A stretch of 64,000 nt of DNA from Octopus vulgaris (lineage: Eukaryota), in the NCBI GenBank assembly GCA_951406725.2, contig OX597816.1, positions 74,090,001 through 74,154,000 on the forward strand, given 5' to 3'. The first letter of the stretch is position 1, and each line of letters opens with the position of its first letter. A program made the position numbers and the translations under genes. The notes beneath the pieces were generated by a model. The model was not told the DNA's origin. It ran no database searches and saw nothing but the letters and a program-made list of their open reading frames with translations. This document shows positions 23,360 through 25,145 of this stretch, piece after piece.

Positions 23360-23592
23360 CTGCAATTCCAGAAAATGAAGATCGTTAACAATAAGGACTT
23401 GAATGGAAAGAATCTAAATGAATACCACTTAATACAAAATAAGATTACTTTATTTTTATTATTATTATTTTGTTTTGTTTTGCTTAAAAAATGTTAGAAT
23501 GGACAAAAATTTACTTTGAAGAACAGAAAAAGCTTCACTACACCCAAGAAGCATGCAAAGCAAGCAAGTTGTAATAGAAGTGTGACATGTAC

Positions 23593-23616
23593 CTGTGAGT
23601 TTCTTGACGAACTCTG
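23593..23616 (-). other. Candidate 24-nt in-frame alternative microexon (QSSSRNSQ) between exons G and H
   Basis: tttctcttttaattttggttcttgtag|CAGAGTTCGTCAAGAAACTCACAG|gtacat; phase 0/0; TGCATG and TGCT repeats 25-45 nt downstream. Confidence 0.55.
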
Positions 23617-24560
23617 CTACAAGAACCAAAATTAAAAGAGAAACAGCTGTAACATTTTTAAGGGTTGGAAAACAAAAGAAATAAGAAGAATTCAGACACT
23701 TTACAATCCTTCACCAAGCCAGCATCATTTTTTCGTTTTGTTTTGGGTTTTTTTTATACATTAAAAAAAGAATTGTCTCAAAGTGAAAAATTTTACAAAA
23801 TATATTTGTTCCTAAAATTATGCCAAGTTGGCTGATTAAAACCAACTGAGGTTCTTAATCAGCCTAGGTTAATCCCAATGAAATATTAAACCACCTGGAT
23901 ATTAGGATTAGTTTGTTTCATCCCTTGTAAGTTAACAGCCGTACAGATATAATTTTATTGAAATGAAAAAAAAAAAACATCAATTAAAAATAATTGGGCA
24001 GTGGGTGGGGGTCACCCTGAAGAAATAATTAGTGAGGTCACCCAAAAGATATGATTTAGTGGAGCAGGGGGTCACCAGAGGTAAGTTTTGTTGAGAAACT
24101 ATTGTTTGTTTCAGTAGAATTTTCCCCACAAAAGCAAAAATTTTTAAATAGAAAATAAAATGAAGCAGAATTTTATTGGACTTCTCATTGAGTGTATGTG
24201 CATATCTAACTGGGACCACATTGGTTACAACAATAAAAAGTCCAATTGATCTGATCAAAGGAACAGCCTGCTCATGAAATTAACGTGCAACTGGCTGAGC
24301 ACTCCACAGACACATGTACCCTTAACATAGTTCTCAAGGAGATTCAGTGCGAGACAAAATGTGACAAGGCTGGCCCCTTAGAATTACAAGTACAACTCAT
24401 GTCTGTGAACAGAATGTACTGGAACATGAAATAAAGTGTCTTGTTCACAGATACCACTGGGAATTGAACTCACAGCCTTATGATTGTGAGCCAAATACCC
24501 TAACTGTTAATCCACGCACCCTCTCTAGCAACGTGCATGTATACATTGGAGGTAGATATA

Positions 24561-24793
24561 CAGGGTTGGCCAAAAGTCACCCGACAGTAAATCGAAATTC
24601 CATAAATACTACCTGTATTTCTGTATTGATTCTAATAGAAAAAATGCGTCGCTCAAGAAGGACTTCAGTTTGAACAATTCCCATGATGTTTCTTATTTGG
24701 ATGCTTTTATTAAATTCATTCAGTTGTTAAACATAAAAAATCTTGGAATTAAATGGCTTTGATTTACTGTCAGGTGACTTTTGGCCAACCCTG
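24561..24793. mobile_element. Tc1/mariner-type MITE (233 bp)
   Basis: TA|CAGGGTTGGCCAAAAGTCACCCGACAGTAAATC ... GATTTACTGTCAGGTGACTTTTGGCCAACCCTG|TA; TIRs with TA TSD. Confidence 0.9.
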
Positions 24794-24870
24794 TACATTG
24801 CAGTCTTTTCAGAATAGAAAATAGTAAAGGAGTAGAGAAGCATGCTGTTTTAGAAATGAGTGGCACTTAC

Positions 24871-25145
24871 CTCAGGGAATCCTTGGAAGAAGTTGACAAT
24901 ATCTTGGACAGATGAGTTATAGGGAAGACCTCTCATTACAACAACAGATGGACCATTTTGAGCATAGTAGGTCTGTGGGGAAACGGGTGGACTTGGGTAC
25001 CAGTAAAAGACAGGAGGATAATATGAAGGTCGTGGAGGCAAGTGTGCCAAAGTTGGATGGGGAAAAGAAGGTACAGTTTGTGGAATATGACTGTAAGGAA
25101 TTGCTCCTGTAAGTGCATTTGGTGTTGGAATGAGAGAAGTGCCAT
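24871..25145 (-). CDS. ESRP: ESRP exon G (Pro-rich region, YPSPPVSP motif, first half of qRRM4)
   Basis: ttttctag|ATGGC...CCTGAG|gtaag; 275 nt; contains WYPSPPVSP and VVVMRGLPYNSSVQDIVNFFQGF, matching the ESRP C-terminal motifs. Confidence 0.94.

Follow-up and report, generated by a model that had tools for sequence, protein, structure and literature searches.

A frame-preserving 24-nt cassette microexon in the fourth qRRM of octopus ESRP

Introduction

The stretch of Octopus vulgaris DNA analyzed here (64,000 nt, referred to as the window) carries the 3′ two-thirds of an ESRP/fusilli gene on its minus strand. A prediction made from these letters (the original prediction) placed a regulated 24-nt microexon near the 3′ end of the gene and cast it as a tissue-specific switch, neural/muscle versus epithelial, that adds a Ser-rich loop to the last qRRM. 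This raises the question of whether such an exon is used by octopus cells, what it does to the domain that it enters and which factors might set its inclusion. Within the listings and abstract openings of open-licence PMC and bioRxiv papers, no description was found of the microexon, of its regulation or conservation, of ESRP isoforms in cephalopods or of an ESRP protein with a fourth RRM, nor did passages and text supplements of PMC5703972 yield one; these subjects may be treated in subscription papers, in splicing databases or in that paper's supplementary figures.

Results

The host gene and its last two coding exons

Exact peptide mapping of the octopus ESRP model P0030 (722 aa; O. sinensis isoform X1, identical to one O. 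vulgaris protein) followed the window exon by exon from residue 214 through to the stop codon at 23203-23201, every mapped stretch matching perfectly. The same exact mapping gave no match for the N-terminal exonuclease-like exons within the 64 kb. The protein combines an N-terminal exonuclease/RNase H-like domain with tandem qRRMs, as expected of the ESRP/fusilli family, and is closest to ESRP1: human ESRP1 (7wrn) was the top PDB match by sequence (E 8e-90) and also by fold, and the named top homologues were all ESRP/fusilli proteins. At its C-terminus the octopus protein has a fourth complete qRRM split across exons G and H, whereas ESRP1 and fusilli lack this domain as described in the available text of PMC5478600 and PMC10853802. 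The coding exons in the window are:

about 57745-57636, 55868-55693, 54210-54116, 33893-33678, 31506-31258 and 27537-27312, minus strand: six upstream ESRP coding exons (qRRM1-3), from P0030 peptide mapping with boundaries read from the sequence
24871..25145, minus strand: exon G, with a Pro-rich region, the YWYPSPPVSP motif, beta1-alpha1 of qRRM4 (RGLPY) and the donor GAG/GTAAGT, from sequence, model and contig coverage
23201..23359, minus strand: coding part of exon H, with beta2-beta4 of qRRM4 (GNRYIELF) and the stop codon, from sequence and contigs, the latter extending the 3′ UTR at least to 22960

The microexon lies between exons G and H, the last two coding exons, and comprises the following parts:

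23617..23645, minus strand: 3′ splice site region with 15/20 pyrimidines and the TAG acceptor in use, from sequence and contig joints
23593..23616, minus strand: cassette microexon, 24 nt, phase 0, encoding QSSSRNSQ (residues 663-670 of P0030), from sequence, both junctions in 4/4 runs, and gene models
23587..23592, minus strand: weak donor GTACAT after exonic CAG, lacking +4A and +5G, from sequence, with its use seen in contig joints

Acceptor, exon, donor, TGCATG, YGCY and upstream motif were all found at the positions given in the original prediction. The acceptor reads ...TTCTTGTAG followed by CAG, with TAG ending at 23617 and CAG at 23614, and the next AG upstream is at -32. The pyrimidine tract, which had been described as long, proved to be ordinary (15/20, compared with 13-18 for five other acceptors of the same gene, acceptors a55 and a54, whose positions were off by one base, being left out of the comparison). 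When a simple splice-site rule was applied to 33,035 intronic nt, three candidate exons were selected, the microexon among them; this is a post hoc count, as a pyrimidine cut-off of 16/20 gave no candidates, missed the microexon and was relaxed to 13-15. With three candidates, sequence alone is suggestive and not decisive, and it is RNA and orthologues that settle the microexon. A hairpin mechanism was rejected, since RNA folding of 23500-23730 revealed no structure (z of +2.07, with 200/200 shuffles folding at least as well).

Several other features were observed in the introns of the window. A candidate 51-nt exon at 36975-36925 (minus strand) has strong ends (tttcag and CAG/GTAAGT) and lies in a phase-0 intron inside qRRM2; as codon 4 is an in-frame stop, a role as poison exon in NMD-linked control of ESRP is possible. 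Two adjacent open frames at 30247-29298 (minus strand), inside an ESRP intron, presumably derive from a broken Tc1/mariner-type transposase, which they resemble by eye, and an open frame at 39278-38565 (minus strand) is by eye what we take to be the C-terminal part of a LINE/RTE-type reverse transcriptase. The intron between exon G and the microexon contains high-copy interspersed repeats at 24200-24800, where contig depth reaches tens of thousands.

RNA and gene-model evidence for the microexon

Assembled contigs were examined for four of the 24 runs listed, one run per study from four studies with two organism labels. The runs carry no tissue labels and are RNA by guess, none being recorded as RNA (14 guessed-RNA holders were listed), a guess that the spliced joints support. 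The joints 23616>24871 and 23359/23593, both with CT..AC ends, were present in 4/4 runs (the latter was reported as 23357>23591, a cut of +2). In runs X3, X4 and X6, a single 2.7-kb contig runs from exon G to exon H through 26 letters (24 plus 2 ambiguous), and in run X1 the path is broken into two contigs at the microexon; low-depth unspliced pieces over the microexon were also found in runs X1 and X3. Among the 15 joints shown for the four runs (two more exist beyond these), there was no G-to-H skip junction and no use of the 21-nt acceptor (CAG), in contigs that give the dominant path only, carry no levels and drop rare variants. The octopus microexon is real, a very short exon with canonical AG/GT ends that is spliced on both sides.

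Public octopus ESRP models contain the same exon and peptide as the window; as these models are automatic annotation, the exon itself is already known to gene models. The microexon is included in P0029, P0030 and P0033 and skipped in P0031 and P0034. By species, O. sinensis XP_029633591.1 and XP_029633592.1 (X1 and X2) include it and XP_029633594.1 (X3) skips it, three of the five O. vulgaris proteins (CAI9719467-471) include it and two skip it, two O. bimaculoides models include it and then run on into the intron, and Argonauta GAB1600064.1 carries QSSTRNSQ. All six octopod models carrying the insert use the TAG form, and the 21-nt form is used by 0/6. A skipped isoform thus exists, in P0031 and P0034 among octopus models, where it comes from automatic database models and not from the RNA joints examined here, and in the pair P0037 and P0039 of the sister clade described below. 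The expectation of a frame-preserving, alternatively spliced 24-nt microexon was borne out, with both junctions in every run and with included and skipped public models.

The models also differ by one Ser at a tandem acceptor of the qRRM1 exon (about 57750-57745, minus strand). This acceptor, not the microexon, is the source of the one-residue difference between O. sinensis X1 and X2; the O. vulgaris models vary likewise, and Argonauta has the short form.

Predicted effect on the fourth qRRM

AlphaFold models of the long form (36 aligned sequences) and the short form (33) had the same RRM4 secondary structure. The insert forms a stretch of the alpha1-beta2 loop, which agrees with the Ser-rich loop that had been proposed for qRRM4, and pLDDT fell under 50 only at residues 661-668 of the long form, a drop that may partly reflect the few aligned rows carrying the insert. 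In human ESRP1 qRRM2, GGU is clamped by the beta1-alpha1 and alpha2-beta4 loops (PMC10853802). When compared with the residues given in the available text of that paper, the GGU-clamp motifs of octopus RRM4 are intact (RGLPY at 642 and NRYIELF, containing RYIE, at 714 of P0030). RRM2 of the same octopus protein naturally has a long loop at this place, with a spacing of 43; that of RRM4 is 38 in the short form and 46 in the long one. Since the insert is predicted to lie away from the clamp loops, the clamp motifs are intact and the RRM2 loop is long, the insert is predicted not to abolish binding. It is possible that it alters partners, phosphorylation or affinity.

Position and frame are kept in cephalopods

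The original prediction proposed a search of cephalopod transcriptomes, and two counterparts were found in other cephalopods: QSSTRNSQ in Argonauta, keeping 7/8 residues of the Octopus insert, and a 7-residue insert at the same junction in a sister clade. The latter is a transcript-derived cephalopod cluster from assembled runs that shares 82-83% identity with octopus and groups as the sister of octopods (100/99-100) in a tree that contains no named squid or cuttlefish. We take this cluster to be decapodiform. Its insert reads NPQRALQ, and P0039 and P0037 differ by the insert alone. The balance of forms is reversed in the sister clade, with the skipped P0037 on 40 contigs and the included P0039 and P0040 on 3 each. 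The prediction had staked its case on a +24 isoform and on conservation of the site among cephalopods, and both were seen.

Among complete RRM4s of the fetched proteins, a 7-8-residue insert was present in 7/12 from cephalopods and 0/60 from other animals, in a sample with members listed for 20 clusters only, without Nautilus and without a full-length protein named as bivalve; 2/60 non-cephalopod RRM4s had far longer stretches resembling intron read-through. A search for shorter proteins gave no further cephalopod with the insert. Among the proteins seen, the insert therefore appears confined to cephalopods. The inserts of the two clades have 2/7 residues in common (R and the last Q, the Q being forced by the CAG|GT donor), compared with 71-72/78 in the rest of RRM4. 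Position and frame of the microexon are thus conserved in cephalopods, and the peptide sequence much less so; both inserts could be near-neutral, or they could be independent of each other. The exon presumably arose a single time in cephalopods, with a length of 21 nt after the CAG, and octopods presumably gained one codon via the upstream TAG, a history that fits the tandem acceptor. None of the 8 loci from a metagenome scan resembled cephalopods in sequence; the phase-0 donor is kept in the 6 that contain exon G, and exon H is reached in 2.

Two further variants were observed in the sister clade. P0040 (3 contigs) also carries 9 extra residues in qRRM3, inserted at the corresponding exon junction; no homologue of this second insert was found in the matching intron of the window (31257-27538, minus strand). 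P0041, a single contig, ends three residues after exon G, truncating RRM4 at the junction used by the microexon.

Other lineages also vary at the RRM4 end in database models. Twenty-six ESRP models among the fetched proteins join pre-RRM4 sequence straight to the exon-H part, deleting beta1-alpha1 in frame. The named ones are all arthropod (horseshoe crabs, ticks, scorpions, a mite, a spider, barnacles, Daphnia and termites), the set includes P0058, P0059, P0063, P0065, P0067, P0234, P0236, P0237, P0240, P0244, P0252 and P0255, and often the species concerned has a longer, full-length model as well. The deletion is likely to come from an upstream donor in the exon corresponding to G. Gastropod P0042, P0044, P0047, P0052, P0214, P0219 and P0224 end exactly at YPPI(L/I)YW, losing PSPPVSP and RRM4. 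A donor-like TG/GTACCC is found at the YW place in octopus (25001, minus strand) and in 6/8 metagenome loci, as follows from the codons; no use of the octopus site was seen among the contig joints of the four runs.

Candidate regulatory elements around the microexon

Two flanking elements may bear on the control of inclusion:

23712..23724, minus strand: upstream TGCTGGCTTGGTG with a single ESRP-like TGGTG, from sequence and motif count
23550..23566, minus strand: downstream cluster of TGCATG (23557-23552) and three YGCY (23566-63, 23562-59 and 23553-50), a candidate intronic enhancer, from motif count

Against the background of the gene's own 34.5 kb, TGCATG occurs in 1.5-2.6% of 60-100-nt segments and TGCATG with three YGCY in 0.12-0.23% (a post hoc figure); the downstream combination named in the original prediction is therefore present and uncommon in this gene. 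Under the MBNL/YGCY rule, downstream YGCY sites lead to inclusion. The UGCAUG lies 35 nt downstream of the weak donor, which fits the Fox-family position rule for downstream UGCAUG (PMC2777236). A weak donor with a downstream UGCAUG supports a putative enhancer, not a tissue. In the O. bimaculoides read-through model, residues are kept at 21/22 codons over the motif; as the intron beyond is similarly alike, this likeness is not specific to the motif region.

The proposed upstream ESRP site held up as a motif but not as an excess over chance, with TGGTG at 1.39 per kb giving about a 1-in-5 chance of one within 150 nt. GGTG also occurs downstream of the microexon (23544-23541). Mammalian ESRP1 controls its own splicing, and the mammalian ESRP map predicts inclusion from a downstream site (PMC9550651). 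As the microexon is flanked by a GGU-type site both upstream and downstream, map and autoregulation alike could be argued either way. In squid, esrp marks epithelial cells (PMC9839350).

Discussion

The reading that we favor, by a modest lean, is that octopus ESRP has a cassette microexon that is included or skipped in frame and places 8 residues, predicted to be disordered, in a loop of RRM4, where they likely tune the domain mildly and do not switch it off. The downstream UGCAUG/YGCY cluster would help the weak donor through Rbfox- and/or MBNL-type proteins. Inclusion would be the usual form in ESRP-expressing octopus tissue, with skipping minor or context-dependent, "usual" here reflecting four assemblies, each limited to the dominant path. 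Skipping prevails in the sister clade, an observation more in keeping with regulated or minor inclusion than with default inclusion.

Other explanations were weighed against this reading. An annotation or assembly artefact, to which the two other candidates selected by the simple sequence rule in the gene's introns would lend some color, is refuted by the contig joints, with canonical junctions in four studies, independent models in four named octopod species and a sister-clade insert at the same place; its probability is negligible. More is to be said for a tolerated, near-neutral exon in a permissive surface loop that keeps the frame, drifts in inclusion level by lineage and has no effect on ESRP function. 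The two clades have only 2/7 insert residues in common against 71-72/78 in the rest of RRM4, the AlphaFold fold of RRM4 is unchanged, inclusion seems to prevail in octopus and to be the minority form in the sister clade, and RRM4 is lost or decayed in many insect models. However, both cephalopod clades retain the exon at one junction, keep it in frame and still splice it alternatively, Octopus and Argonauta have 7/8 residues in common and an uncommon enhancer-like cluster adjoins it, and we regard this explanation as unlikely, although the strongest of the alternatives.

The neural/muscle-versus-epithelial switch of the original prediction, with downstream Rbfox and MBNL favoring inclusion, upstream ESRP repressing it and epithelia skipping the exon, is somewhat less probable still. 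It is consistent with the UGCAUG and three YGCY, which are uncommon in the gene and positioned as the Fox-family rule requires (PMC2777236), with the self-regulation of ESRP1 splicing in mammals (PMC9550651) and with inclusion being the minority form in sister-clade contigs. Squid esrp is epithelial (PMC9839350), and skipping in epithelia predicts skipped transcripts in ESRP-rich samples, so that the included path in 4/4 ESRP-expressing octopus runs leans against the switch; the tissues of these runs are not given, and the observation is a lean and not a refutation. Furthermore, the upstream TGGTG is at chance level with GGTG also downstream, and Fox-2 acts in epithelial exon choice (PMC2777236), so that UGCAUG need not mean nerve or muscle. 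A neural microexon of the eMIC/SRRM4 type would share the 24-nt length, the preserved frame, the surface loop and the weak donor. In contrast to eMIC targets, where a long AG exclusion zone and a nearby UGC accompany the acceptor (PMC8797185), the octopus exon is preceded by 30 nt free of UGC and has an AG at -32, and its host gene is epithelial in squid (PMC9839350), making this origin highly improbable.

Comparison with known systems places the cassette microexon among short alternative exons of similar build. The alternative donors of mammalian ESRP1 exon 12 (CKLP) and the C-terminal isoforms of Drosophila fusilli are also small C-terminal alternative events (PMC5478600). These are alternative donors or terminal exons in proteins described as having three RRMs and switch a nuclear-localisation peptide, whereas the octopus event is a cassette exon inside a fourth RRM with an insert that, by eye, is unlike either peptide; the analogy drawn in the original prediction is thus loose. 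Rbfox-enhanced c-src N1 and NMHC-B N30 are likewise short exons with UGCAUG in the downstream intron (PMC2777236), compared with the single UGCAUG of the octopus microexon, a candidate Rbfox site. The eMIC/SRRM4 neural microexons (PMC8797185) are alike in size, frame preservation and surface-loop insertion; the octopus exon differs from them in lacking the UGC and the long AG-free zone and in being found in ESRP-expressing samples.

On a broader and speculative reading, which we consider rather doubtful, the fourth GGU-binding domain of invertebrate ESRP, intact in itself, would be set to different states by lineage-specific splicing, with arthropods deleting its first half in frame, gastropods stopping before it and cephalopods inserting a regulated microexon. 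If this were true, the cephalopod exon would let Rbfox/MBNL-type factors, or ESRP itself, tune an epithelial splicing regulator through a domain on which the cited papers are silent. By itself, the microexon is a further example of a short alternative exon in a splicing regulator, and its structural effect is predicted to be mild. What it adds is its persistence in the two cephalopod clades sampled and its absence from every other animal sampled, at the junction where database models of other invertebrates break RRM4. Should its inclusion be tissue-regulated and change the behavior of RRM4, the exon would offer an RT-PCR handle on cephalopod splicing-factor cross-regulation and on the function of ESRP RRM4.
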